Positions 10,311 to 56,321 of a stretch of DNA of 64,000 nt are shown here, piece after piece. Source of the stretch: an uncultured Candidatus Saccharibacteria bacterium. Its GTDB lineage: Bacteria; Patescibacteriota; Minisyncoccia; Phycocordibacterales; DATDWN01. The notes below the pieces were generated by a model. It saw only the letters and a program-made list of their open reading frames with translations. It ran no database searches and was not told the origin of the DNA. The DNA lies in the NCBI GenBank assembly GCA_964576615.1, contig CAZNUU010000001.1:164226-228225 (forward strand). The letters run 5' to 3'. The position numbers and the translations under genes are program-made. Each line of letters opens with the position of its first letter. The stretch's first letter is position 1.

Positions 10311-10703
10311 CTATTTCTTCCTCGCCGTGACCGGTTTCTTTCTCTCCTCGAGAAGCTCGTAGACGATGTGCTCGTCAGAGTCCTTCGGTGGAGACTCGAA
10401 AAATTCGTCAGGCAATTCATCGTAAGTATCGTCTCTCATTGCCTGTCCTCGACTCCGACCCATTTCATCGGACCGGCGCCTGAGCTCCTTGGTGTCGAGC
10501 TTGCCGAGTTCAATCTTGCGAGCCCGATACCGCGTTTCCCTCTCGGCCCCACTTGTGGCGAACCTGCTCAAGCCGTCGAGATACCTCGAGATCTCGCCCT
10601 TGTGAGCAATGATCTTCTTTAGCTCCTCATCTGTCAGTTCGCGATCCTCGAGAAGGAGAGCAACAAAGCCACGCGCCCTCTTCCTTTCTTCTTCGTAGGA
10701 CAT
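10311..10703 (-). CDS. hypothetical highly charged protein in a GC-rich islet.
   Basis: 130-aa Arg/Glu-rich ORF in a GC-rich block. Confidence 0.4.
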   Translation of the reverse strand: MSYEEERKRARGFVALLLEDRELTDEELKKIIAHKGEISRYLDGLSRFATSGAERETRYRARKIELGKLDTKELRRRSDEMGRSRGQAMRDDTYDELPDEFFESPPKDSDEHIVYELLEERKKPVTARKK

Positions 10704-11142: not shown

Positions 11143-11693
11143 CTGACTATTATACTAGAACTGTTCTTTCTTCTCATTATGAAGTCGCCGTCGACTACTT
11201 TGCCTGTAAACTCAAATCCATAGGACTTGTAAAGTTTCTGAGCACCAATATTTTTCTCCCAGACATCCAGATATACATTCTGTGCTTTTTTTATTTGGTC
11301 GTAACCAAAGGCTTTGTCGAGCAGTTTTTTGCCAATTCCCATTTTCTGGTAATTTTGCAATACGTACAATCTCCGTATCTCTTGATCTCCTTCCTGAAAA
11401 TCGTCGGTAGGATAAGATGAGTCAATCGGACCAAACTCGCAATAACCAATCAGGATATCATTATCTTCCGCAACTATTGCAGTATTATCTTTCAAAGAAT
11501 CTGTAAAATATTTCTCTGAACGCCCCTCCTCCAAAGCAGCCTGTAAATCCTCAGGATTTTTAAAAGTATGTCCAAATGCATCCGTATAAGTCTTGGCTGC
11601 TAAAATAGCCAGATTCGGTATATCTTTTTCTGTAGCTTCCCTTGTTATCATTTTATCTATTGTACCAAACGAAATGCCGGGTAGCGCTTTCAC
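11139..11693 (-). CDS. GNAT family N-acetyltransferase.
   Basis: RRLYVLQNYQKMGIGKKLLDKA (acetyl-CoA binding motif A). Confidence 0.8.
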   Translation of the reverse strand: MKALPGISFGTIDKMITREATEKDIPNLAILAAKTYTDAFGHTFKNPEDLQAALEEGRSEKYFTDSLKDNTAIVAEDNDILIGYCEFGPIDSSYPTDDFQEGDQEIRRLYVLQNYQKMGIGKKLLDKAFGYDQIKKAQNVYLDVWEKNIGAQKLYKSYGFEFTGKVVDGDFIMRRKNSSSIIVR

Positions 11694-12307
11694 GCTACCC
11701 GGTTCTTAAAGTACTGTTCGTTGGCCGACTTGATCTGCCACGCGTCGGCGACAAACACCAGCGAGACTGCCTGTTGCAATGCAAGCCAGAAGTAGCCTTG
11801 CATGAACATGAGGATCCCAGCCGAAGCGTTCATGAGAAAGAACCAACCATACCCGTCGAGGTGATCTTTGGCGAGGCGGTAGGTCCCGACCAGGAAACCT
11901 ACCGTGACACCGAGCTCGACCCACTGACTCACGTGAATCATGAAGCCAAGCTTCCAGACACTGACAGCGACCCCGACGATTGCGGCCACAACCGCAAATC
12001 GATCGAGAATCTTCACTGACAGATCCCTGAACCAGCTCGGCTTCTTGTCCAGGCGCCGAAGCGCGAGAACAAGTCCGAGTACCATAGCCGGTGCGCCACC
12101 CGCTTCAACCAGAGTGACCATCAAATCGTTTTCACGGTAGAGGATCACCAGCCAAGCCGGCAGACCAACGATGTAGACCGCCCACGCCGCGATGTTCCAG
12201 AGACGCCATTCACGACCCTTCTCGGGTGACCTTTCCTTGCGGCTAAGGAAGATCTTGTTGAGAAGGTAGAAAACACCTCCCCAAGTCTGCAGTAATCCTG
12301 TGGTCAA
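11690..12307 (-). CDS. PnuC-like nicotinamide riboside/NMN transporter family membrane protein (GC-rich islet).
   Basis: Polytopic; GWFFLMNASAGILMFMQGYFWLA resembles the PnuC W-x-L-x-N...QG-Y signature. Confidence 0.4.
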   Translation of the reverse strand: MTTGLLQTWGGVFYLLNKIFLSRKERSPEKGREWRLWNIAAWAVYIVGLPAWLVILYRENDLMVTLVEAGGAPAMVLGLVLALRRLDKKPSWFRDLSVKILDRFAVVAAIVGVAVSVWKLGFMIHVSQWVELGVTVGFLVGTYRLAKDHLDGYGWFFLMNASAGILMFMQGYFWLALQQAVSLVFVADAWQIKSANEQYFKNRVA

Positions 12308-15665: not shown

Positions 15666-15960
15666 CAATTTTTTTGAAACGAAAAATACCGTCAGAAAGA
15701 CGGCATCGGTCGGGCCACGTGAGATATCGAATTCAAGACATCTCACGTGGCAGGTCGCTTGTTACCGGACTTCTCCCTTCTGCGCCACGCGCCGATGGAG
15801 ATGCGGTGAGGCTAAGGACGGATCTGGGCCAAGACAGAAGCCCGCCTGGGCACATTCTGCCCCCAAATCTCCCACCTGACCGGAGCAAGGGCACGATTGC
15901 GGATTTTTGCCACCATTTTACTGGACTCGCCAGTACTACTGGTGTCTTATGGGGAGATGT
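15666..15960 (-). ncRNA. candidate structured RNA immediately upstream of dnaX, ending in an intrinsic terminator. Possibly SRP RNA by synteny; unproven.
   Basis: GC-rich, with an 11-bp perfect hairpin CCACGTGAGAT...ATCTCACGTGG (15705-15745) and a minus-strand terminator CCGTC-AGAAA-GACGG plus a T-run (15666-15703). A GGTCAGGT segment is only weakly SRP-like. Confidence 0.3.
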
Positions 15961-16035
15961 ATCCCAATCCCTCGCGCTCTCTCTTTCTATACAATCATCC
16001 TTTACGAAAAAAATGTCAAGACAATAAAGTTGTGG

Positions 16036-16320
16036 ATAAAAAGAAAAGCCCCGGCGCGGTTTTCTGCGCCGGGACCCGTTGTTCTTCTTGACTCCATGGT
16101 CTAAGCCCACTATTTTAATCAGGTTAGCGGGAACCTGCCGGGGCGACACGCCCTCGGTGAAATGTTCGCATTTTTCCAAGCCCGGAGCTCCACATTAGCC
16201 AGTAGATATCTCGCGGTGGATGAGCCAGCCTCTTCCTCTCTGCCGGTTTTATCCTAGTTATTCCGGCTCAGTGGGTGTGGCGTGCAATTGCCCAGCATCT
16301 GGGGATCACACAACCATGAC
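16036..16320 (-). ncRNA. candidate structured GC-rich RNA downstream of dus, ending in a strong intrinsic terminator.
   Basis: Minus-strand terminator CCCGGCGC-agaaaacc-GCGCCGGG plus CTTTTCTTTTTAT (16036-16073). A possible TTGACT-N16-TACCAT promoter lies near 16345. Contains AAGCCCGGAGCUCCACA, which resembles the RNase P P4/P5 string, but the motif order does not fit RNase P. Confidence 0.3.
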
Positions 16321-17389: not shown

Positions 17390-18019
17390 ATGTCAAGAAA
17401 ACCAATGCTCGCCGTGATGGCGTCCGGAACAAAAACAGGCGGTGGCTCGGGTTTTGAGAATCTGGTCAAGGCTTCACGGGACGGCAGACTAGACGCTGCT
17501 ATCTTCGTCATTTCTAATCACGAAAATGGCGGAGTACGCGAAAGAGCCAACAAGCTCGGTGTTCCCTTCACCTACTTCCCTGGGCCATGGACCGCGGAGA
17601 ACTACCGCAAGATAACTGAAGGAGCTGATTTCGTAGCTCTTTCTGGTTGGCTCAAGATGGTTTATGGGCTTGATCCCAAGACAACATTCAACATCCACCC
17701 GGGACCACTTCCGAAATTTGGTGGTGACGGAATGTACAGTCACCATGTCCACGAGGCGGTGGTCAGCGCATATCGCAGAGGAGAGATCGCCGAATCAGCT
17801 GTGACAATGCACTTTGTGATCGAAGGTTACGACAAGGGACCGATCTTCTTCGCCGAGAAGGTAGAGATGAGGCCAGACGATACACCAGAGTCACTTCAGG
17901 TCCGTGTCAACATGGCGGAGCATAAATTTCAACCCTTGGTGACTCAAGCTGTGTTACGAGGCGAGGTCAGTTGGGATGGCAAGGATCCTTCCACGCTTGT
18001 ATCGCCGTATCATTTCTGA
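17390..18019 (+). CDS. formyltransferase-domain protein (PurN/GART-like), moderately GC-enriched.
   Basis: N-terminal Rossmann-like region and NIHPGPLPKFGG (PurN NIHPSLLP motif analogue), followed by a hairpin at 18024-18047. Confidence 0.55.
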   Translation: MSRKPMLAVMASGTKTGGGSGFENLVKASRDGRLDAAIFVISNHENGGVRERANKLGVPFTYFPGPWTAENYRKITEGADFVALSGWLKMVYGLDPKTTFNIHPGPLPKFGGDGMYSHHVHEAVVSAYRRGEIAESAVTMHFVIEGYDKGPIFFAEKVEMRPDDTPESLQVRVNMAEHKFQPLVTQAVLRGEVSWDGKDPSTLVSPYHF

Positions 18020-27322: not shown

Positions 27323-27862
27323 ATGCCAGAAAACTTGCAGGACCCGACCCCTCCCAAAAAAGAGCGTGGCAACGGAGCGAACGTCATCGCTGTAAATGAG
27401 GTCGGAGGTATTCTCCTCGTCAAACACAACTACGGAGGCGAGCAGTGGGGTCTTCCGGGCGGTGAAATTGAGCGAGGTGAGGCCCCGACTCACGCTGCTT
27501 GTGAAGAGACAGAGGAGGAATCGGGTCTGGTGATTGATCCTCACGATCTCAAACTCATCGGCTGGTTCATCCAGAGACCTAAGGGGGTCGTCTTCCTCTT
27601 CGAGACACGGAAGTACGCCGGGACCGTCATAACAGAACCGAACAACGAAGTCTCAGAGGCTCGCTTTATGAGCCTTAGAGAAATCGTTGACCTTGGCGAG
27701 AAAGTCGGTCTGGCCTATCGAAGAATGATTCTGCGGTATATCCGCTGCATCGAGAGGATCGACCCGATCCCCTACGAAGGACGGCTGGCAGATCCGGTCG
27801 AGTATCCGAAGGATCTTGTCTCGGGCGAGGGAAAGTTCGCCGACATTGTTCACCGAGTCTGA
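27323..27862 (+). CDS. Nudix hydrolase (GC-rich islet) with a non-canonical Nudix box.
   Basis: GGEIERGEAPTHAACEETEEESGL fits GX5EX7REUXEEXGU except that R-E is replaced by E-E. Confidence 0.55.
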   Translation: MPENLQDPTPPKKERGNGANVIAVNEVGGILLVKHNYGGEQWGLPGGEIERGEAPTHAACEETEEESGLVIDPHDLKLIGWFIQRPKGVVFLFETRKYAGTVITEPNNEVSEARFMSLREIVDLGEKVGLAYRRMILRYIRCIERIDPIPYEGRLADPVEYPKDLVSGEGKFADIVHRV

Positions 27863-39091: not shown

Positions 39092-39430
39092 GGCGTAGTA
39101 GCCAAGTAGCATGAGCATAGCGAACTAGTAAAAAGCCAAGGGTCTGCATGCAGACAAATCTGAAATAATTTCAGATAATGAAGAACGAAGTAAATAGTGG
39201 CGTAGTAGCCAAGATAGCAAGGCAAAGGTCTGCAAAACCTTTATGCGGCGGCGCACATCCGCCCTACGCCTCCAGGCGAGGAAGCAAGCAAATTTATTTG
39301 CTTGCTTGCGGATGTGCGAGCCGCAGATATATTTTTTCAGTAGAAAAAATAATCGAGGCGGGGTCGCGAAATTTTGCAAGCGACGGCGAGCAAAATATTT
39401 GTGACCGCATCCGTCTTCGCATTTATATTT
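39092..39430 (+). repeat. GC-rich highly structured region with a tandem imperfect repeat, upstream of tRNA-Leu(TAA).
   Basis: GGCGTAGTAGCCAAGTAGCA...GGTCTGCA repeated at 39094 and 39198; palindrome GTCTGCATGCAGAC; hairpin ATCTGAAAT-aa-TTTCAGAT; 11-bp stem CGCACATCCGC...GCGGATGTGCG enclosing hairpin GCAAGCAAA-ttta-TTTGCTTGC. Confidence 0.4.
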
Positions 39431-39431
39431 T

Positions 39432-39513
39432 GCCCGGATGGCGGAACTGGTATACGCGCACGACTTAAAATCGTGTCTCGCAAGGGATGTGGGTTCGATT
39501 CCCACTCCGGGCA
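39432..39513 (+). tRNA. tRNA-Leu (anticodon TAA).
   Basis: GCCCGGA...anticodon stem CACGA/TCGTG with loop CT-TAA-AA, a long variable arm, T-arm GGGTTCGATTCCC, and acceptor TCCGGGC-A. Confidence 0.8.
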
Positions 39514-39536
39514 CAAATTTCCATTTATTTTAATAA

Positions 39537-39566
39537 TTGACAGATACATATAAACCGTGCTATAAT
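39537..39566 (+). promoter_or_regulatory. consensus sigma-70-type promoter with a strong Shine-Dalgarno, driving the GC-rich ORF at 39586.
   Basis: TTGACA (39537-42), 18-bp spacer, TATAAT (39561-66), then AAGGAGG (39572-78) 7 nt before the ATG. Confidence 0.6.
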
Positions 39567-39585
39567 TGAAAAAGGAGGCAGACTC

Positions 39586-39915
39586 ATGGAACTTGTTCCG
39601 TACCACCTGGCAGCCATCGTGGCTGGTCAGATCGCGCAGCAGGACTTCAGGGTAACCCTCAGCGAGTACATCTCGCGTAAAGGAAGCCCTTGGGTCATCA
39701 CCGTCGGGGAATCCTACTGGCAACGGCACCTGGTGATCGAAACGGTCATCCATGGTGGCAACGATGCCACGTTGGCGATTCTCGCCAACGAACAGTCAGT
39801 CTTGCGTACCCTCGACATCGACACGACGAAGGTCGACCGCAGGGTCTCGCTCAAGGAGCTCCTCGCCGGACGCTACAGTGGCATAAGGCAGGCTCTCGAT
39901 GCCGTTCATGCGTAG
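39586..39915 (+). CDS. hypothetical protein (109 aa), strongly GC-rich cargo gene.
   Basis: ORF with a perfect promoter and RBS, followed by two hairpins (39929-39955 and 39964-39995); no recognisable motif. Confidence 0.45.
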   Translation: MELVPYHLAAIVAGQIAQQDFRVTLSEYISRKGSPWVITVGESYWQRHLVIETVIHGGNDATLAILANEQSVLRTLDIDTTKVDRRVSLKELLAGRYSGIRQALDAVHA

Positions 39916-40000
39916 CGATGTTCGAAACGAGTGGGAGAGATGTATTCTCCCACTCGGCACTCTCGATAATTCAGAAGAGTTATCGGGATTTTTTGTATTT

Positions 40001-40039
40001 AAAAATCAATAGCCGAGAAACGTGAACCGTTTCTCGGCT
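40001..40039 (-). terminator. Rho-independent terminator for the minus-strand gene 40054..40671.
   Basis: 12-bp stem AGCCGAGAAACG/CGTTTCTCGGCT followed on the minus strand by a T-run. Confidence 0.65.
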
Positions 40040-40053
40040 AGAAGCTCAACCAC

Positions 40054-40671
40054 TTACGGGACCTCCCTACGAACGTGATAAGCCCCCCTGAGAAGAGAAG
40101 CTGAGATCACAAATAACGTGAGCGTAGAGAAGCACCAGAAAATGATCTTTGGTAGATCATCAGCTGGTGGGAGTCCAGTCCGCAGTAAGAGCCCTGAAAT
40201 GAACAGTGCTCCGACTGTAAACGCCGCCGCCATACCTTCGAATCGCAGAATCTCCTTACGCTGATAAGACCTTTGAGGCCTCGACAGCATTCCAATGGCG
40301 AGAGCCACCAGCAAGACTGTTGAGATTGTGATCACAACATCAGGAACTTCAAAACCAAACCAGCTTTTGAAAATCCTGATGATGAAGGGCTGCGGAACTC
40401 CCCCAATCCAGTTATCCTTGACGAATTCGGGATTGGAGAGACCTCGCAGGTAGGCCGAGAGCAGAGTGAGAGGACAGATGAAGTTGAACGGAATTTGCGC
40501 AAGACCGACTGTGATCAGGACAGCTCGATTGTACTTGAAGATCCTCGAGTAGCGAGAAGACAACGCAAAAAATGGACCAACTGCCATACCCACCATGATT
40601 ACAAGCACGACGAGGTGGAAAAAATCCACCAACATAGCCAGCCTTTCATAGAAGTTCATAACTTCCTCCAT
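40054..40671 (-). CDS. hypothetical polytopic membrane protein, GC-enriched, directly 3' of tRNA-Lys.
   Basis: 205 aa with about 5 TM helices. Confidence 0.4.
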   Translation of the reverse strand: MEEVMNFYERLAMLVDFFHLVVLVIMVGMAVGPFFALSSRYSRIFKYNRAVLITVGLAQIPFNFICPLTLLSAYLRGLSNPEFVKDNWIGGVPQPFIIRIFKSWFGFEVPDVVITISTVLLVALAIGMLSRPQRSYQRKEILRFEGMAAAFTVGALFISGLLLRTGLPPADDLPKIIFWCFSTLTLFVISASLLRGAYHVRREVP

Positions 40672-40723
40672 TGCGGATAATACGATTTAAATCGCTAATG
40701 TCAAATTCAGAAAAAACTTATTA

Positions 40724-40800
40724 GTGGTGCGCCCACCAGGGATCGAACCTGGGACATTCTCCTTAAGAGGGAGCTACTCTACCAGCTGAGTTATGGGCGC
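40724..40800 (-). tRNA. tRNA-Lys (anticodon CTT) with encoded CCA.
   Basis: The reverse complement gives GCGCCCATAACTCAGCTGGTAGAGTAGCTCC-CTCTTAA-GGAGAATGTCCCAGGTTCGATCCCTGGTGGGCGCACCA. Confidence 0.85.
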
Positions 40801-40839
40801 AGTATTTTTATTATACTCACTTTTATTCAGACTTCAATT

Positions 40840-40871
40840 TCTATATCATACGATATATCGTATGATATAGA
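40840..40871. promoter_or_regulatory. 32-bp perfect palindrome (operator-like), copy 1.
   Basis: TCTATATCATACGATATATCGTATGATATAGA, 2 nt beyond the regulator stop and about 40 nt upstream of the tRNA-Lys 5' end. Confidence 0.6.
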
Positions 40872-40872
40872 T

Positions 40873-41259
40873 TTAAAATTGCAAAAAATGTTTAAATCTA
40901 TCTCTGCCAACTCTAGGAGGTATTATTTTTTTGATTAATGTTTGGAAACTTTTTTGAAGCTTTATTTCTTTTATAATATTGTCATACTTCCCTATCTCAT
41001 AGCTATCTGAGATTCTGGCTACGGTCGATGGACTAACTTGTAATATATTTTCAATTGCATAAGAAGTTTCACCCTCATCAATCATAACTATCATAGCCAG
41101 TCTTTTAGCAAGCATTATTTTCTCTGTTTTGGTCAATACCTCATCAAAAAATACTTTTGTTTTACCAGACCGAACAAGATTTTGAATATTTTTATACAGT
41201 TGCTTGTTTATTTCTATAAATTTATTCCTTTCTAATAATTTTTTTGAAATATGTGGCAT
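40873..41259 (-). CDS. TrpR-family YerC/YecD-like HTH DNA-binding protein.
   Basis: ...VFFDEVLTKTEKIMLAKRLAMIVMIDEGETSYAIENILQVSPSTVARISD... matches the YerC pattern (FFDDLLTPNE...LAKRL...GxTYxEIxxxTGxSxxTVxR). Confidence 0.5.
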   Translation of the reverse strand: MPHISKKLLERNKFIEINKQLYKNIQNLVRSGKTKVFFDEVLTKTEKIMLAKRLAMIVMIDEGETSYAIENILQVSPSTVARISDSYEIGKYDNIIKEIKLQKSFQTLIKKIIPPRVGRDRFKHFLQF

Positions 41260-41264
41260 TTATA

Positions 41265-41288
41265 TATCATACGATATATCGTATGATA
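41265..41288. promoter_or_regulatory. 24-bp perfect palindrome (operator-like), copy 2, identical core to copy 1.
   Basis: TATCATACGATATATCGTATGATA, 5 nt upstream of the regulator ATG and about 50 nt upstream of tRNA-Leu(TAG). Confidence 0.6.
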
Positions 41289-41420: not shown

Positions 41421-41617
41421 CAAGAAACTGGCGTTCAGCCAGTTTTTGTGCGGACTAGAGAGGACTTGAAGACCGATTGAGATATTTTTGGAGTTACGAG
41501 CAAAAATATCCAATTGGGATACTGATCGTGTAACGATCAAGTCCGCTTGCTAAAAATAGTTCCTGAACTATTTGACTTTTTTTAAAAAATCGATAGATTG
41601 GCCGAAGAGAGGATGAC

Positions 41618-42715: not shown

Positions 42716-43936
42716 ATGAATGGTGTGAGACCACAGCGACTTCCGGAGAGCCACGCGAAAGCGGCGCTCATCCTGATGGTCGCACTCGTGGTGAATCTGG
42801 CGCTTTTCGGGACAGCGGTCCTCATGATCCTCTTCGGAAGAAGTACGGGATCGTGGTGGGATACGCTTTCACAGGTCAACTTGGAAACGGGAGGGGTCTT
42901 GATCCTTCTCATCCAAGTCTTTCACGCTTTAAACAGCGTGAAGAACGTGAACCTCAACCAGCAGGCAATTCTGCTGCTGTTTGGGGCATTCGTGAAGTAC
43001 GTCGAGCCGGGGCTCATTTATGTGCCCTGGGGTTTCTGCAGGTTGCTTCGAGCGACCACCGAGACGATCGAGAAAGACGTCCCGGCAGACTCACGGTTCA
43101 TAGACCACAGCGATGTTACCGATCAGACCACCGGTGGAACGGGAGTAATCCGAAAGGGCTACTTCCCTCCCATTCGAGTGACCTTTGCACCAGCAAAGGC
43201 TGCGGAAACAATCGAGGTGGGCGGTGAGAGGATCACGATTCCGGCGGACGATCCCTACGGCAAGAGAAATACTGCCGAAGTGGAGTTCTCCTACGGTTTC
43301 GAGATCTACGACTACGCGCGAGTGGTAAAGCGGTTCGGCACTGACGATCCAATCGGCAAGGCCAAGAACCAGCTGGACGACGTCGGCATCGGAGTCGTAA
43401 ACGACGAGTTGTCGCGAATGACAACCGCCAGAGCGATGATGAGTCAATCAGCGGTAGCGAACAAGATCCGGGATACTCAGTCTACCGAATCGGCAGACTG
43501 GGGAGTTCAGATCCTCTTCGTTCGCTTGAAGCCGTTTGGGTTCAGTCACAAACTGAACACTGCGGTCAGACAAGCAGCGGAGTCGTTTGCGCTGAAACAG
43601 GCAGTCGTCGTCGCCTCAGAAGGCGAACGTGAGAGACTCACCAACGTCGGCACGGGCACAGCAGAAGCAGAACGTCTGCTTTTGGAGGCACGGGCCAAGG
43701 GTGAAGCGGCGCTCGCCAAGGTCGCAGAGACACCTGGTGGCAAGTACGCCATGGCGGTCCGAGAAATCGGGCAGGCTGTGACGGCTGCCAGGGCAGTCGT
43801 CGTTCCGGGAGATAATCTCCTCGGAGCGGTGGCAAGTGCTGCGGCACTGGTCAAACAAGTCGGTGACGTAACGGAAACCGGCACAACCGGCTCAGCAAGC
43901 GGAAGCAACACGCGACCGCCTGCATCGAGACCATGA
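42716..43936 (+). CDS. SPFH/band-7 (stomatin/flotillin-like) membrane protein, strongly GC-rich.
   Basis: N-terminal TM, then AILLLFGAFVKYVEPGLIYVPWGFCRLL...(SPFH core) and a flotillin-like Ala/Glu coiled coil ERLLLEARAKGEAALAKVAE. Confidence 0.6.
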   Translation: MNGVRPQRLPESHAKAALILMVALVVNLALFGTAVLMILFGRSTGSWWDTLSQVNLETGGVLILLIQVFHALNSVKNVNLNQQAILLLFGAFVKYVEPGLIYVPWGFCRLLRATTETIEKDVPADSRFIDHSDVTDQTTGGTGVIRKGYFPPIRVTFAPAKAAETIEVGGERITIPADDPYGKRNTAEVEFSYGFEIYDYARVVKRFGTDDPIGKAKNQLDDVGIGVVNDELSRMTTARAMMSQSAVANKIRDTQSTESADWGVQILFVRLKPFGFSHKLNTAVRQAAESFALKQAVVVASEGERERLTNVGTGTAEAERLLLEARAKGEAALAKVAETPGGKYAMAVREIGQAVTAARAVVVPGDNLLGAVASAAALVKQVGDVTETGTTGSASGSNTRPPASRP

Positions 43937-43946
43937 GGTGTGAGAG

Positions 43947-44714
43947 ATGATCATCGCAGCGGTCGTCGTGGTGCTCGCAGCCATTTACATTTGGCTGCGA
44001 GCACAACAAGATCGAGACAGCAGAGGTATTGCGCGGGAGAGGCAGGAAGCCCCTCCCGACCAGGCAGATACGCCCCCGCAACCCGAAAGGGATGCGGATG
44101 GCGACTTCCCTTGGTACAAGTGGTGGAAGAGGCCCGGGTGGTGGAAAGAGAACATCTTTACCATTCCACTCGGAATCCTCCTCGGCCACATCATCGTCGC
44201 TGTCGCGACTCCAGATTTGTACTTCGAGTACATCTGGAGTTCGTGGCAGTTCTGGGCGCTGCAAGCGGTGATCGTTATCGCCGCCTGGATGATTCCGCAA
44301 GGAAATGTCCAGTACCATCCGAAGCTTGGCAAGATCATTGTCGTTACCGCTCTGCTAGCTGTTGTATATGTCTGGGGAAACAAAGCCCTGGATGATGCAC
44401 AGAAAAGCGCAGCGGCATCGAACAATGCTCAAGCCAGCTCATCGACCCAGAACACCCCGCCACCGAACAACGGAGGCAGGATCGTGATCACCGCCCCGCC
44501 GGTCTCGCAAGAGCCGACGGGTCGCATCGCACTACCACCGAGAGCCGTGCTCTCGGCGAACAAGCCGTTCACAATTTTTCAACTCGACGAGAGGGGAAAA
44601 GAGGCCTCCTACGACGGAGGTCCGGGCATGGAGGGGGTTCATCTCCCGCCATCTCCCTACGCCAGGTTCCGGTCAAAATCAGAAGAACCGGTCCTGATAA
44701 CCTTCATCCAGTAA
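43947..44714 (+). CDS. polytopic membrane protein, possible NfeD-like SPFH partner, GC-rich.
   Basis: 4 TM helices plus a C-terminal soluble beta-rich segment; followed by terminator CCCCCCCGCA-tacg-TGCGGGGGGG (44742-44765). Confidence 0.35.
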   Translation: MIIAAVVVVLAAIYIWLRAQQDRDSRGIARERQEAPPDQADTPPQPERDADGDFPWYKWWKRPGWWKENIFTIPLGILLGHIIVAVATPDLYFEYIWSSWQFWALQAVIVIAAWMIPQGNVQYHPKLGKIIVVTALLAVVYVWGNKALDDAQKSAAASNNAQASSSTQNTPPPNNGGRIVITAPPVSQEPTGRIALPPRAVLSANKPFTIFQLDERGKEASYDGGPGMEGVHLPPSPYARFRSKSEEPVLITFIQ

Positions 44715-44780: not shown

Positions 44781-45065
44781 TTAGAGATTTAGAAACGATC
44801 TAGCCGTAGGAACATCACTTGGCGCAATGCCAAAAGTATCGAGGGTGAATTTTATAAGACCGTAGACAGAAAACATTATAACTAGACCCACAATACTCCA
44901 GAGTATTGCATTACGAGCCTCGTCCCTATCCGTAGAGTCAGCACCGAGCCTGAGAAATCGAACAACACTGTAGAAAAAATATGCAAAGGCTAGGGCAAAG
45001 CCGAGCGTAATTATGGGATTGAGAATAACACTATTTACATTATAGAGAAAAGTCGTGATAGTCAC
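44781..45065 (-). CDS. pilin-like small membrane protein, paralog A (no signal peptide; possibly truncated).
   Basis: Shares the two-helix core LxFALAFAYFFYSV...AILWSIVGLVIMFSVYGL with five upstream paralogs. Confidence 0.4.
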   Translation of the reverse strand: MTITTFLYNVNSVILNPIITLGFALAFAYFFYSVVRFLRLGADSTDRDEARNAILWSIVGLVIMFSVYGLIKFTLDTFGIAPSDVPTARSFLNL

Positions 45066-45073
45066 GAGAAACT

Positions 45074-45421
45074 TTATGAGTTAGGAAGCTTAGGTAGGTT
45101 GATGTTTGTATCTGTAAGACCAAACGTATTAACCAAGAAGTTGATTAGACCGTAGACAGCAATCATCACAGCCAAAGCTACGACACCCCAGATCATTATA
45201 CTTCTTCCCTCTGCAGCAGCCTTTGGATCGCTACCAACATTTCGGATGTATTTAATAAGACCCCAGAAGAAGTAGATAATAGCTAGACCGAAAAGAATCG
45301 GCAGTACTCGATCTAATACCTCTGTCTTAAACTGACTAAGTAAAGTACCCAGACCAGTTAGGCTTGCGGCAAAAGCCAAGGCAGGGCCAAAAACTAACAC
45401 TGAATAAGCAATTTTTTTCAT
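45074..45421 (-). CDS. VirB2/TrbC-like pilin-family small membrane protein, paralog B.
   Basis: Sec signal peptide (…ALAFA), then hydrophobic helix 1 (PILFGLAIIYFFWGLIKYI), polar loop (NVGSDPKAAAEGRS) and helix 2 (IMIWGVVALAVMIAVYGL). Confidence 0.45.
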   Translation of the reverse strand: MKKIAYSVLVFGPALAFAASLTGLGTLLSQFKTEVLDRVLPILFGLAIIYFFWGLIKYIRNVGSDPKAAAEGRSIMIWGVVALAVMIAVYGLINFLVNTFGLTDTNINLPKLPNS

Positions 45422-45505
45422 ATCTTAATGTAAATAACCTGTAATATCTTAATTATATAGTAAATAGTAAGGAAAACAAGCTAGTTGTGGATAAAAAGAA
45501 TAGCG

Positions 45506-45859
45506 TTATGGCCCAAATATACCGCTAAAATCACCGCCTGGTCTTATACCTAGAGCATCACCTATTGCAAACAATATTCCGTATATAGCAACGAATACAA
45601 ATAGAGCGACAATCCCCCAGATAATCTTATTTTTACCGTCCTCTCTGGTCTTATCGTTACCGGCATCATTTAAGATAAACTGGGCCAAGCCCCAGAAGAA
45701 GTAGACTATCGAGAGGCCAAAAAGAATCGGAACTATGCTCGATAGAATTTGCATTATTTCTTGGAGCAACCCCTTTATTCCATTTAATTGGGCAAAAGCT
45801 AAATTAGGTAACAAGACTAATAATGTATATTTTATTTTTTTCATATTTTTATGGACCAC
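45506..45859 (-). CDS. VirB2/TrbC-like pilin-family small membrane protein, paralog C.
   Basis: Signal peptide …NLAFA; VPILFGLSIVYFFWGLAQFIL ... IIWGIVALFVFVAIYGIL. Confidence 0.45.
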   Translation of the reverse strand: MVHKNMKKIKYTLLVLLPNLAFAQLNGIKGLLQEIMQILSSIVPILFGLSIVYFFWGLAQFILNDAGNDKTREDGKNKIIWGIVALFVFVAIYGILFAIGDALGIRPGGDFSGIFGP

Positions 45860-46202
45860 CTTTTAAATATGGTATGGCTGAGGCGGGACCAAAGCCAAGG
45901 TCACTTGCAATAAAACTGGTAATTGTTCTGAAAGTGAGAAGAATGAATAATGCCAAGATACCCCAAAGCATGTAGCTTTTACCCTTTTCTATATTTTCAT
46001 GACTATCCGAGTGGAGAATAAATTTGGAGAGCCCCCAAAAGAAAACAATGAAGGCAAGCGAAAAAAGAACAGGAACTAGAAGACCAATGGCACTAACAAT
46101 ATATTTTATTGTAGCCCCCAGAGTAGTGGAAAATAAGGAAAAAGCAAAAACTGGAATTGGACACAGAATCAAGAAAACAATTATAGATCTTATTTTTTTC
46201 AT
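45849..46202 (-). CDS. VirB2/TrbC-like pilin-family small membrane protein, paralog D.
   Basis: Signal peptide …VFAFS; VPVLFSLAFIVFFWGLSKFIL ... YMLWGILALFILLTF. Confidence 0.45.
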   Translation of the reverse strand: MKKIRSIIVFLILCPIPVFAFSLFSTTLGATIKYIVSAIGLLVPVLFSLAFIVFFWGLSKFILHSDSHENIEKGKSYMLWGILALFILLTFRTITSFIASDLGFGPASAIPYLKGGP

Positions 46203-46203
46203 G

Positions 46204-46581
46204 CTATGGACAAGGGAAGGAACCCGTTGCTACCACACTACAGACTGTACTCTGGATAACGAGTGAGATGCCAGCTGCCCCAAGAAGAATACCCGCACCA
46301 ACTAGTGCCCATAGTAGCCTCTGATGTGCTTCTTCTATTTTTTTTGGATTGCCTTGCGCAGTTAGATAAGTAAAACCTGCCCAGATAATCCAAAGTACGA
46401 CGACGATAGCGGCAACCGGCATTACAATCTTGTTCAAAATAACAGAAAGGAGCTGGGGTAAGGTATTTGCGCCACTTAGCGGGTTCGGAATAGAGGTGCC
46501 AGATCCTATTGTTTGAGCATATAAAACACCCGGTAAAAGATAGGCAAGATATTTAGTTTTTGTGAGAAGTTTCATACTCAA
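46204..46581 (-). CDS. VirB2/TrbC-like pilin-family small membrane protein, paralog E (C-terminal Cys pair).
   Basis: Signal peptide …VLYAQ; IVMPVAAIVVVLWIIWAGFTYL ... LLWALVGAGILLGAAG; ends CSVVATGSFPCP. Confidence 0.4.
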   Translation of the reverse strand: MSMKLLTKTKYLAYLLPGVLYAQTIGSGTSIPNPLSGANTLPQLLSVILNKIVMPVAAIVVVLWIIWAGFTYLTAQGNPKKIEEAHQRLLWALVGAGILLGAAGISLVIQSTVCSVVATGSFPCP

Positions 46582-46583
46582 TA

Positions 46584-47036
46584 TTATATTAAATTTGGAA
46601 TACTGCTGTTAAGTAAAGTTGAGGTGATTAAGTGGACAATGAGCCAAGCACCAAGGATAACCGCTATACCAATTGCACACTTAAGAAGTGTCTGGTTTGC
46701 CTCCGATCTTTTGCCGGGATTGGGACCTGAGATCATATACTTCCAGCCCGCAAAGGCAATCACAATCACAGTAAACAAAAGTGCAGTGACTGTTCCAAAG
46801 TTAACAATATTTATTACTTCCGGAATGAGATCTTTGTAAAAATCACAATCACCTGCTCTGCCTGTACTACCCCCCGTGCATTCCCAAACGATGCCAGTCT
46901 TACCACCAGAGCCTGCAGCCTGAGCATGAATTGTAAAAGGCAGAACAAAAAGAAATAATGTCGGAATAATTAGGAGAAAGAATGAAAAAATTTTTCTATT
47001 TAAAAACATACTACTGTATTTGGCTATTAAGTTCAT
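46584..47036 (-). CDS. VirB2/TrbC-like pilin-family small membrane protein, paralog F (Cys pair after the signal peptide).
   Basis: Signal peptide …TIHAQA; VWECTGGSTGRAGDCDF; TVTALLFTVIVIAFAGWKYM ... LLKCAIGIAVILGAWL. Confidence 0.4.
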   Translation of the reverse strand: MNLIAKYSSMFLNRKIFSFFLLIIPTLFLFVLPFTIHAQAAGSGGKTGIVWECTGGSTGRAGDCDFYKDLIPEVINIVNFGTVTALLFTVIVIAFAGWKYMISGPNPGKRSEANQTLLKCAIGIAVILGAWLIVHLITSTLLNSSIPNLI

Positions 47037-48923: not shown

Positions 48924-49352
48924 TTACCTATCGCAACTGACGATGACACCGGCACTTCTCTTTTCGCCGACGAAGGCCTGACAGGTGATAGAGACCCCGT
49001 CTACCTTTATCGTAAGAAGTATCATGTTGACAACTCCGCCGGGGCGACGCTTGCCTTTGACCCTCTGCCACCTTTCGTTGATGGGAACATCCAGAGCTTT
49101 GTCGAAGTCGTGGTACGAGACCTCGACGGCGTCGAGACCACGGTGGACATGGTCATCCAGAATCTCGAATCCGCCCTGACCATCGTTTCGAACGATGACC
49201 AATTCACGTGAGAATTCGATCGCAACCATGTTACCGGCAGCGATTGAACCCATCGAATCCGACGTGTACACGAAGCTTTTGGTCGAGTCCGTAGCAGGGC
49301 TCTCGATGCAGGCACTCATGGCCAGAACCAGAGATACAAGGATCAATCTCAT
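48924..49352 (-). CDS. putative lipoprotein, strongly GC-rich islet.
   Basis: Signal peptide with lipobox-like LAMSAC; a beta-rich body. Confidence 0.35.
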   Translation of the reverse strand: MRLILVSLVLAMSACIESPATDSTKSFVYTSDSMGSIAAGNMVAIEFSRELVIVRNDGQGGFEILDDHVHRGLDAVEVSYHDFDKALDVPINERWQRVKGKRRPGGVVNMILLTIKVDGVSITCQAFVGEKRSAGVIVSCDR

Positions 49353-53483: not shown

Positions 53484-53532
53484 TTTATTTAAAGTGTTTC
53501 AAATTCAATATTTGACATAATTATATAAATGT

Positions 53533-53775
53533 GTGAGTATTGACCATAGAGAGGAGATGCTGATGGCCAAGGAAGATCGTGGTTTTGCGTCGATGGATTC
53601 GAAGAAGCAGCGAGAAATCGCGAGCAAAGGTGGGAGAGCGGCACACGAGAAAGGTACCGCCCACGAGTGGGACGCGAACGAAGCTCGTGAAGCAGGTCGC
53701 AAAGGCGGCCACGAAACCCAGAAACGTCGGAAAAAGCAGGGTCTACCAGCGTGGATCAGGAAGAAGAAAAAATAA
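53533..53775 (+). CDS. KGG-repeat general stress protein (YciG-like), GC-rich.
   Basis: ASKGGRAAHEKG...AGRKGGHETQKRR are KGG motifs; terminator at 53788-53819. Confidence 0.5.
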   Translation: MSIDHREEMLMAKEDRGFASMDSKKQREIASKGGRAAHEKGTAHEWDANEAREAGRKGGHETQKRRKKQGLPAWIRKKKK

Positions 53776-53966
53776 GTTCGGTACCGAGGCGGCGTGCAAC
53801 GTGCGCGCCGCTTTTGTTTGCACAAATACCTATGACTTAGAACCAACGACACTAATGCTACAATATACTGTAGCATTAGAGATAATGACTTTTTATAAAT
53901 GAAGTCGAATATATTAAAACAAGAAAAGGTTCGACTCGGAGAGCGTCTAACCCCCCTTGTCGAACC

Positions 53967-54293
53967 TTACTTTTTCGAAAACTTCACGTGTCGGAACTCC
54001 TCACTCCGGAATCGGCCGATGTCCGATTCGGAGATCCCCTCTTGTTTCATTGCCTCTTCGAGGGCGGACCCCTTGGCAAGGCTTCGGCTGAAGAAGCCTG
54101 AGAGCTCGTCGAGGGAAACTTCCTCGCCGGCGAGGACCTTCTTCGCCGTTCTTGCCTGGGTCCGCCGATCTGCCTCTTGAGCCTTCTTCAGCCCCGGAAC
54201 GGCGATCGCTGCGATGATTCCGACAAACAGGATGACGATGAGAAACTCGATCAGGGTGAATCCTTTGATCGAACGCGCACGAGAAACTGTCAT
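53967..54293 (-). CDS. type IV pilin/pseudopilin-like protein (prepilin N-terminal methylation motif), GC-rich.
   Basis: MTVSRARSIKG|FTLIEFLIVILFVGIIAAIAVP is a class III signal peptide; GGAGG RBS before this Met; terminator hairpin AGGTTCGAC...GTCGAACCT downstream. Confidence 0.5.
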   Translation of the reverse strand: MTVSRARSIKGFTLIEFLIVILFVGIIAAIAVPGLKKAQEADRRTQARTAKKVLAGEEVSLDELSGFFSRSLAKGSALEEAMKQEGISESDIGRFRSEEFRHVKFSKK

Positions 54294-54404
54294 CTCAACC
54301 TCCTCCACCTTTATACCACCAGTATTTAATATGTCAAGCTATCCAAACTTCCTCATTTTTGTATACTTAAAGCCGTATTTTATTAGCCACTATATACGCT
54401 AAAT

Positions 54405-55605: not shown

Positions 55606-55863
55606 TTATGCCTCCAGCCTACGCAGGAGACTGCCATGCACCGAAAGAGCAACTCGCCCTTCGGGCGTCCAGATCGTGACATGATAACTGCCTGCCCCCA
55701 TCTCCATCAGATGATCGAGTGCAGACTCTGCTGTCACGAAGTGACCGTCGATTCTCGTTGTCGCTGACTGAGCCACCATTCGAAAAGGAGCTGGTGACAT
55801 CGGCAAGTGACAATCTGGATCAGGTGTCATCTCTCCTGGTCTACGCGGTCCAATTGGTGCCAT
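55606..55863 (-). CDS. hypothetical protein in a GC-rich islet (uncertain).
   Basis: 85-aa ORF in a GC-rich block; overlapping alternative frames exist. Confidence 0.2.
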   Translation of the reverse strand: MAPIGPRRPGEMTPDPDCHLPMSPAPFRMVAQSATTRIDGHFVTAESALDHLMEMGAGSYHVTIWTPEGRVALSVHGSLLRRLEA

Positions 55864-55931
55864 AATCCCCCCAAATTGAATCCTAACATAAGCATTTTGA
55901 GCGCACGACTTTCATCGTGCGCTCTCGTGTC

Positions 55932-56321
55932 TTACCCGACTACATGAAGATTGTCGTGTTCGTCATCTTGCGGAGGAGCTGACCTTCCACCTCGAAGTGC
56001 ATCACCCTCAGCACGGACTCTGGCAACTCTGGCTTCAACCCTCCTCTGCTGCCGTCGGATGTGAGCAACGACGCTCGCCACCTCACCACTCAGCAGATGT
56101 GGGCTGTATGTGTAGATCGTGCTTTGCTGGGCTTGCCAGAGCTCCGCGATGGCATCGTGGTTCTCTGGGATCTTCGTCGCCAAGATCAATTTGGCCAGGA
56201 TGTTCATGGCATTCGCAGTATTTGCCTGCGGTATGACATTAGTGATTGAGAGATGGAACGGCTTGGTACCGTCATCATCCATCACATCTTTTCCTTGACC
56301 GAGAAAAACTCCGTCACTCAT
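55932..56321 (-). CDS. hypothetical protein in a GC-rich islet (uncertain).
   Basis: 129-aa ORF; an overlapping plus-frame ORF is the alternative reading. Confidence 0.25.
   Translation of the reverse strand: MSDGVFLGQGKDVMDDDGTKPFHLSITNVIPQANTANAMNILAKLILATKIPENHDAIAELWQAQQSTIYTYSPHLLSGEVASVVAHIRRQQRRVEARVARVRAEGDALRGGRSAPPQDDEHDNLHVVG

Follow-up and report, generated by a model that had tools for sequence, protein, structure and literature searches.

A self-contained promoter-gene-terminator cassette beside a tRNA-Leu gene encodes a member of an undescribed protein family and was probably acquired laterally

A 109-amino-acid (109-aa) open reading frame (ORF) in a 64-kb stretch of contig CAZNUU010000001.1 (the window, to which all coordinates without a locus prefix refer) lies just downstream of a tRNA-Leu gene and carries its own promoter, Shine-Dalgarno sequence and terminator. 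We consider it probable, at roughly 0.7, that this cassette is an autonomous monocistronic unit that was inserted laterally into a slot between the 3' ends of the tRNA-Leu and tRNA-Lys genes in a Parcubacteria/Paceibacteria-type genome of the candidate phyla radiation (CPR). Relatives lack the gene, sequence identity breaks off at the tRNA, and the GC content at third codon positions (GC3) is foreign, so that the gene is best regarded as a laterally acquired, moron-like accessory gene. CPR, or Patescibacteria, genomes are small yet full of unannotated genes, and the way in which they gain genes is poorly understood. The locus offers a clean example of such a gain, sharply delimited by a tRNA 3' end and with the gene missing at this site in three relatives.

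RESULTS

The tRNA-Leu(taa) gene (39432..39514, plus strand; called by ARAGORN, Rfam score 61.3 bits) forms with its 3' end the left border of a variable segment, and only 22 nt separate it from the -35 box of the 109-aa gene. The sigma-70-type promoter (39537..39566, plus strand) matches the consensus at 12 of 12 positions, with TTGACA at 39537-39542 and TATAAT at 39561-39566. The 18-nt spacer between them carries TG at 39558-39559 (it ends in TGc), which makes an extended -10 element. In a consensus promoter scan this score was unique within 35-45 kb, and TTGACA-N16-18-TATAAT is present once in the whole window, against 0.03 occurrences expected from shuffles. The Shine-Dalgarno sequence AAGGAGG (39572..39578, plus strand) follows 5 nt past the -10 hexamer and precedes the ATG at 39586 by 7 nt; AAGGAGG-N5-9-ATG occurs four times in the window, where 0.75 would be expected. 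The ORF itself (39586..39915, plus strand) is supported by homologues, by its codon-position pattern and by an AlphaFold model, and it belongs to an undescribed alpha/beta family of about 110 aa. Downstream lie a 12-bp hairpin without a U-tract in the 3' untranslated region (UTR) (39928..39956, plus strand) and an intrinsic terminator (39961..39994, plus strand), in which a hairpin with a 12-bp stem and a 4-nt loop (39961-39988) is followed by TTTTTT. The terminator hairpin of a convergent 205-aa gene (40010..40040, minus strand) can form on the plus strand as well, and the folding z-score of the 3' region of the 109-aa gene is -8.6. The expression signals of the gene are a complete set and are not there by chance. 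An earlier reading of the letters alone (the original prediction) had described a near-ideal promoter and Shine-Dalgarno sequence and two downstream hairpins, and all of these were found exactly where it had placed them, with the T-run only after the second hairpin. What it overlooked is the short distance between promoter and ribosome-binding site. Because only 5 nt separate the -10 hexamer from the Shine-Dalgarno sequence, the transcript of this promoter should start at or inside the latter; a start about 7 nt past the -10 hexamer gives a leader of about 13 nt with the Shine-Dalgarno sequence at its extreme 5' end.

The first 3'-UTR hairpin (GGGAGAGAtGTATTCTCCCACTC) resembles a hairpin located 3' of the homologue at locus L021 (approximately 1772-1800, GGGAGAGAcgGTATATTCTCTCCCACTC), although the two proteins do not look especially close. 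An antisense ORF of 138 aa (39337-39753) overlaps tRNA-Leu and was rejected as spurious.

The 109-aa ORF is a real gene. Its GC content is 0.588 and its GC3 is 0.745, compared to a GC content of 0.42 and a median GC3 of 0.36 for the window, and its GC3 exceeds that of all 77 other window ORFs; a GC-rich ORF right past tRNA-Leu was indeed what had been predicted. A word-indexed search returned only the protein itself and one relative with 55% identity. An exhaustive search of 1.84 billion representatives with a hidden Markov model (HMM) gave 55 matches with E<=1e-3, at least two of them spurious (P0045 and P0048, among the weakest), and 43 with E<=1e-10, nearly all of them 100-125 aa long. P0045 and P0048 are long proteins, with SprB and DUF5979 repeats, and were rejected as homologues; so were two apparent homologues from Actinomycetota (L005 and L006), which run antisense to a methyltransferase gene. 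P0006, P0010 and P0014 have C-terminal extensions, which contain no Pfam domain and are mutually unrelated. The family can be summarized by the consensus IAxCDFRVxxSxY...PWxITVGESxWxRHLVV...DGxDAxL..L...QS...L..L...Y.GVK..L.P, and most of its members are neutral or acidic (isoelectric point 5.3-6.7). Substitutions between homologues are dominated by the third codon position (24, 14 and 45 differences at positions 1, 2 and 3 between L004 and L020), and 32-58% of identical residues are encoded by differing codons. Judged by this pattern, the ORF is under purifying selection at the protein level. We also considered a second role of the GC-rich ORF as a structured RNA. This idea found no support, as an Rfam search of the ORF gave no match, the folding z-score of the coding RNA was -2.2, which is not unusually structured, and the coding signature is clear. 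The family, with about 50 clusters, is undescribed, conserved and confidently foldable. Those family loci that have taxon names belong to Patescibacteria (L003 to Paceibacterota), and the IF2 relatives of the window are Parcubacteria or Zambryskibacteria, which places the window among Parcubacteria/Paceibacteria.

The same cassette architecture recurs at all 15 family loci that we examined (the window, L001, L003, L004, L007, L008, L010, L011, L013/14 and L016-L021), in agreement with the predicted self-contained cassette of promoter, Shine-Dalgarno sequence, ORF and terminator. The -35 box is TTGACA at 12 loci and TTGACT at 3, a -10-like hexamer follows 16-18 nt further on, the TG of an extended -10 element is present in 11 of the 15, and a stable hairpin, mostly with a U-run, comes directly after the stop codon in every case. 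Leader length ranges from 19 nt (the window, which has the shortest) to about 124 nt. The neighbours vary from locus to locus and include uvrC/uvrA, rarA/gdh, the trigger factor gene, nrdR, the gene for L24 and glycosyltransferase genes, often on the opposite strand; an all-against-all comparison of the ORFs within 5 kb at the 15 loci revealed no recurrent neighbour. The family gene is always a solitary, monocistronic promoter-ORF-terminator unit. As it always has its own near-consensus promoter, its product is predicted to be abundantly made. The GC3 of the family gene is higher than the flanking GC content at nearly every locus, which is consistent with repeated transfer from GC-richer donors. 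A search for homologous cassettes in other genomes or mobile elements had been proposed, and its outcome is divided. Other genomes hold them, with near-consensus promoters. Phage and plasmid collections gave no homologue, whether among 50,697 phage genomes (INPHARED), among 72,556 plasmids or in IMG/VR.

At four of the 15 loci the -35 box begins 1-22 nt past a tRNA 3' end: tRNA-Leu in the window, a tRNA cut by the contig start in L001, tRNA-Asn in L016 and a tRNA-Asn-like 3' remnant in L019. With three independent cases in about 13, the binomial P value is approximately 0.02-0.1 depending on the null, so the adjacency is suggestive but falls short of being decisive. The tRNA-Asn(gtt) gene of L016 (L016:5510-5813) holds a 231-nt intron and was detected only with the intron option of ARAGORN.

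In one subgroup, a conserved 5' leader of about 115 nt (L010:2160-2320, L016:5813-5964, L018:14-169 and L019:1470-1626) separates a TTGACA-17-TATCAT promoter from the ATG. It forms a long hairpin with seven compensatory pairs in four sequences, followed by a near-invariant GGCAUACACGCCAA-like stretch, then by a hairpin UGCUCUC-AGGUN-GAGAGGCG and then by CAAAG. The reading frames of this leader differ between loci, which indicates that it is non-coding. It has no Rfam match and is not present at the window locus; we regard it as a candidate for a new cis-regulatory RNA.

In the window, the cassette is part of a variable GC-rich segment of 1.2 kb (39518..40724) between the convergent 3' ends of tRNA-Leu and tRNA-Lys. 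The segment stands out by its composition, is absent or replaced in three relatives (L022, L023 and the P0062 contig), and consists of two convergent promoter-ORF-terminator units, both GC-rich. The second unit, on the minus strand, encodes a predicted membrane protein of 205 aa (40054..40671; GC content 0.49; weak match to DUF2784) from a promoter TTGACA-16-TATTAT at 40704-40677, which begins 21 nt past tRNA-Lys. This 205-aa gene does not lie beside any other family member at the 15 loci. The tRNA-Lys(ctt) gene (40725..40800, minus strand) provides with its 3' end the right border and is inverted relative to its counterpart in L023. The other neighbours of the cassette in the window are infB, rbfA, further tRNA genes and a gene for a TrpR-like regulator.

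The cassette is absent from all three syntenic relatives. In L022, whose IF2 is 78% identical to that of the window, the block of tRNA-Cys, spacer and tRNA-Leu is 99.7% identical over 319 nt (window 39199-39517). Identity ends at 39517, no more than 3 nt past the 3' end of tRNA-Leu, where L022 continues with an unrelated gene of 177 aa. In L023, whose IF2 is 66% identical, only 190 nt lie between tRNA-Leu(taa) and the same-strand tRNA-Lys that comes next, and on the P0062 contig 720 nt without a called gene separate rbfA from the TrpR-like gene. The horizontal acquisition that had been proposed is thus borne out by the highest GC3 in the window, by the absence from three syntenic relatives and by the break in identity at the tRNA-Leu 3' end. 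The cassette is compositionally foreign in the window and is an insertion relative to these genomes. That the tRNA block is nearly identical, though the two genomes diverge by 22% in IF2, fits tRNA-anchored recombination. No integrase-like ORF was found in 39.5-45 kb, and the only att-like candidate for the tRNA-Leu end is a 32-nt sequence with a 72% match (44502-44533) that lies inside another ORF.

The tRNA-Cys/tRNA-Leu block has several features of its own. Its copy in L022 lies at L022:5168-5486, and the rbfA genes of the window and L022 are only about 67% identical in DNA, compared to 99.7% for the block. Its spacer measures 157 nt, whereas tRNA-Cys and tRNA-Leu are just 3 nt apart in L023, so the spacer is an insertion; it is either recently exchanged or strongly constrained. 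Positions 39316-39332 in the spacer are complementary to the tRNA-Cys T-arm. A decayed copy of the tRNA-Cys 5' half (39092-39170) lies immediately 5' of the intact gene; it runs from the acceptor and D-arm through an insertion that measures 21 nt in the alignment to the anticodon stem, as far as GCA. No such relic is present in L022.

The original prediction had suggested that the protein be modelled with AlphaFold. With a 52-sequence alignment, the model reached a predicted local distance difference test (pLDDT) score of 94.9 and a predicted template modelling (pTM) score of 0.87, and it orders one helix, five strands and two helices (alpha-beta5-alpha-alpha). Comparison of the model with solved structures gave no significant match, and sequence searches of the PDB were empty for both the single protein and the family profile. 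For the protein and all 52 aligned members, Pfam, NCBIfam, PADLOC and PHROG yielded only isolated sub-cutoff matches, none of which reached a curated cutoff or recurred. The fold is thus predicted with confidence and, as modelled, is unlike solved structures, and the statement that the protein has no recognisable domain holds. GAR (Gas2-related) domains and other small alpha-beta5-alpha sandwiches appeared in the structure comparison with noise-level scores and 12-16% identity to eukaryotic microtubule-binding domains; such scores lend no support to homology with the GAR domain.

The protein has no N-terminal signal peptide, hydrophobic leader or transmembrane segment, and residues 6-17 form an amphipathic helix within the predicted fold. 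The product would be soluble and cytosolic. The most conserved residues (D20, F21, R22, W36, G41, E42, W45, R47 and H48) lie in and around beta1-beta3, that is, at the start of beta1, in beta2, in the beta2-beta3 turn and in beta3. In the model, this cluster suggests a surface that binds a ligand or a partner. The role as a small effector, toxin or immunity gene that had been envisaged is not supported, as we found no conserved partner, no signal peptide, no match to a defence, phage, plasmid or toxin family and no structural match.

DISCUSSION

We propose that the cassette entered the genome with the highly conserved tRNA genes serving as recombination anchors. Once inserted, its extended -10/-35 promoter is predicted to drive strong, largely constitutive transcription. 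No terminator lies between the tRNA genes and the cassette, and read-through from tRNA-Cys and tRNA-Leu would therefore add to this transcription. The product may work in the cytosol by binding a ligand or a partner, with the contacts provided by the invariant Asp20/Arg22/Trp36/Glu42/Trp45/Arg47/His48 cluster, and would be neither a toxin nor a secreted effector. This function is the weakest step of our account and we hold it only tentatively, on the doubtful side; a stoichiometric binder is only weakly favoured over an enzyme, a toxin or a secreted effector.

Several points weigh against this account. No integrase, transposase or att-type direct repeat marking the insertion was found, and the relatives could in principle have lost the gene, in which case its absence there would not point to a gain. 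The GC3 above host level in nearly all family members could result from selection instead of repeated transfer. With the Shine-Dalgarno sequence at the extreme 5' end of the transcript, translation may be limited, and the strength of the promoter in a CPR host is assumed from the Escherichia coli consensus. Binding, finally, is proposed from the conservation pattern together with the lack of alternatives.

Among the other explanations, it is unlikely that the protein is an orphan immunity or antitoxin-like protein or an anti-defence inhibitor, that is, an abundant small binder that neutralises the toxin of a competitor or phage and spreads as a self-sufficient form of protection. No cognate toxin or polymorphic-toxin locus lies near any of the 15 loci, phages and plasmids yielded no homologue, no PADLOC or PHROG match was obtained and the structural scores are at noise level. 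That the protein binds RNA, possibly tRNA, or nucleotides would be a long shot. In such a factor the invariant Trp, Arg and His residues on the beta-strands would contact RNA, and it would be made together with the tRNAs by read-through, as is tufB. The tRNA adjacency is only suggestive in this respect and is equally explained by tRNA flanks as insertion hot spots, while most family members are neutral or acidic and the structural scores are not significant. A wider version of this idea is just as speculative, namely, that the family is a new class of small proteins that bind RNA/tRNA or nucleotides and that spread among Patescibacteria as minimal autonomous cassettes landing preferentially at tRNA 3' flanks, with one subgroup under a hitherto undescribed structured 5' leader of about 115 nt that is riboswitch-like or autoregulatory. 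If this were true, the structured leader of the subgroup could point to the ligand or partner.

The gene could also be ancestral, vertically inherited and highly expressed, with a GC3 raised by selection at the codon or mRNA level, and lost in the relatives. A GC3 above flanking GC at nearly all family loci, whatever the GC content of the host, fits this explanation, as do the family-wide conservation of the promoter architecture and a rarA neighbour common to L007 and L017, which indicates some vertical inheritance. We nevertheless consider it very unlikely, since the family is rare (about 50 clusters among 1.84 billion representatives), the genomic context differs almost everywhere, three syntenic relatives are without the gene and identity breaks sharply at the tRNA end. 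About a dozen other small GC-rich ORFs in the window argue for a general import of GC-rich DNA, and the GC3 of the IF2 gene is only 0.30; the comparison with highly expressed genes is a weak one, since no gene for a ribosomal protein or EF-Tu was identified in the window. The idea that the cassette is not real at all is effectively refuted, whether it is taken as an artefact of cloning or assembly or as a GC-rich non-coding RNA in which an ORF arose by chance. Its signals do look synthetic (a 12/12 promoter together with AAGGAGG) and its composition is foreign. However, the cassette DNA matches no plasmid or vector, which excludes a vector artefact, and the same junctions are present in L002, a Logan assembly that may derive from the same sample. 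The same architecture is found at 14 further loci from unrelated metagenomes, and both the protein-type substitution pattern and the confident AlphaFold model argue against an artefact, as do the missing Rfam match and the modest folding z-score of the mRNA. Two of the outcomes that would have spoken against the original prediction, an ORF that is not conserved and a cassette of cloning or assembly origin, were thus not what we found. A laterally inserted, autonomous cassette remains the explanation that we favour.

Phage morons are autonomous promoter-ORF-terminator insertions that were described for the lambdoid phages HK97 and HK022, and their expression is independent of that of neighbouring genes. 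Like them, the cassette adds a single gene, with a promoter and a terminator of its own, between unrelated genes, has an atypical composition and is absent from close relatives. Unlike a moron, it belongs to a bacterial chromosome, has no phage genes in its vicinity and no homologue in PHROG, IMG/VR or INPHARED, and here one protein family keeps the cassette architecture across many host genomes. Genomic islands and islets associated with tRNA genes integrate beside tRNA 3' ends. The window segment is similar in that it begins within 3 nt of one tRNA 3' end and ends at another, is compositionally distinct and varies among relatives; however, it is only 1.2 kb long, has two genes and contains neither an integrase nor an att direct repeat. 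In view of this, we infer that tRNA-anchored homologous recombination is likelier as the insertion route than island-type integration. The cassette is neither a moron, as it has no phage context, nor a tRNA island, as it has no integrase or att site.

The thrU-tyrU-glyT-thrT-tufB unit of E. coli is a tRNA-mRNA co-transcription unit. There, as in the window, a protein gene directly follows tRNA genes of the same strand and no terminator intervenes, so that tRNA transcription can feed the mRNA. The window ORF differs in having its own consensus promoter, only 4 of the 15 family loci are adjacent to a tRNA, and co-transcription is only predicted. In contrast to type II toxin-antitoxin or toxin-immunity pairs, the window gene has no conserved co-oriented partner at the 15 loci and is monocistronic with its own terminator, and its product has no sequence or fold similarity to known toxin, antitoxin or immunity families. 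It also differs from secreted effectors, having no signal peptide, anchor or recognisable secretion signal, even if a 109-aa protein might conceivably carry a non-classical one. An undescribed protein family without a significant solved relative is common for CPR genomes and does not indicate an unusual mechanism.

As matters stand, the 109-aa gene is one more hypothetical accessory gene. The family nevertheless lends itself to structural and biochemical study, and its cassettes might supply strong native promoters and terminators as parts for CPR genetics.

OTHER FEATURES OF THE WINDOW

Beyond the tRNA-Lys gene, a 31-nt direct repeat (97% identical; 40837-40867 and 41258-41288) that holds a perfect 24-nt palindrome (TATCATACGATATATCGTATGATA) flanks the TrpR/YerC-like gene (40873-41259). 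One copy is situated at the start of this gene and the other over the tRNA-Lys promoter (TTGAAG-16-TATAAT), and the palindromic repeats are probably operators of the TrpR/YerC-like regulator. A conserved hairpin element (gaagcctgtttgag...tccaaacagggtactgatcg...) is present in the window (41450-41550), in L023 (L023:10575-10690) and in L019 (L019:1360-1470). It is found downstream of tRNA-Leu(tag) in the window and L023 and of tRNA-Asn in L019, and it ends in a copy of the 3' end of the preceding tRNA. It could be a remnant of a tRNA-end duplication or a small RNA.

About a dozen window ORFs have a GC content of 0.49-0.57, compared to 0.36-0.42 for the background. Most are small and one measures 406 aa; they lie at 10311-10703, 11690-12307, 15733-16179, 17390-18019, 27323-27862, 42716-44714, 48924-49352, 53505-54308 and 55606-56321. 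They give the genome the look of a mosaic in which many GC-rich genes are imports. For the pair at 42716-44714 (406 and 255 aa), a similarly placed Band_7-like gene pair in L023 may be the counterpart, although tblastn did not detect this correspondence. Next to it, at 44781-47036, five or six genes for small membrane proteins (94-150 aa) form a tandem array with repeated sequence, which we take to resemble the TrbC/VirB2-type pilin arrays common in CPR genomes.
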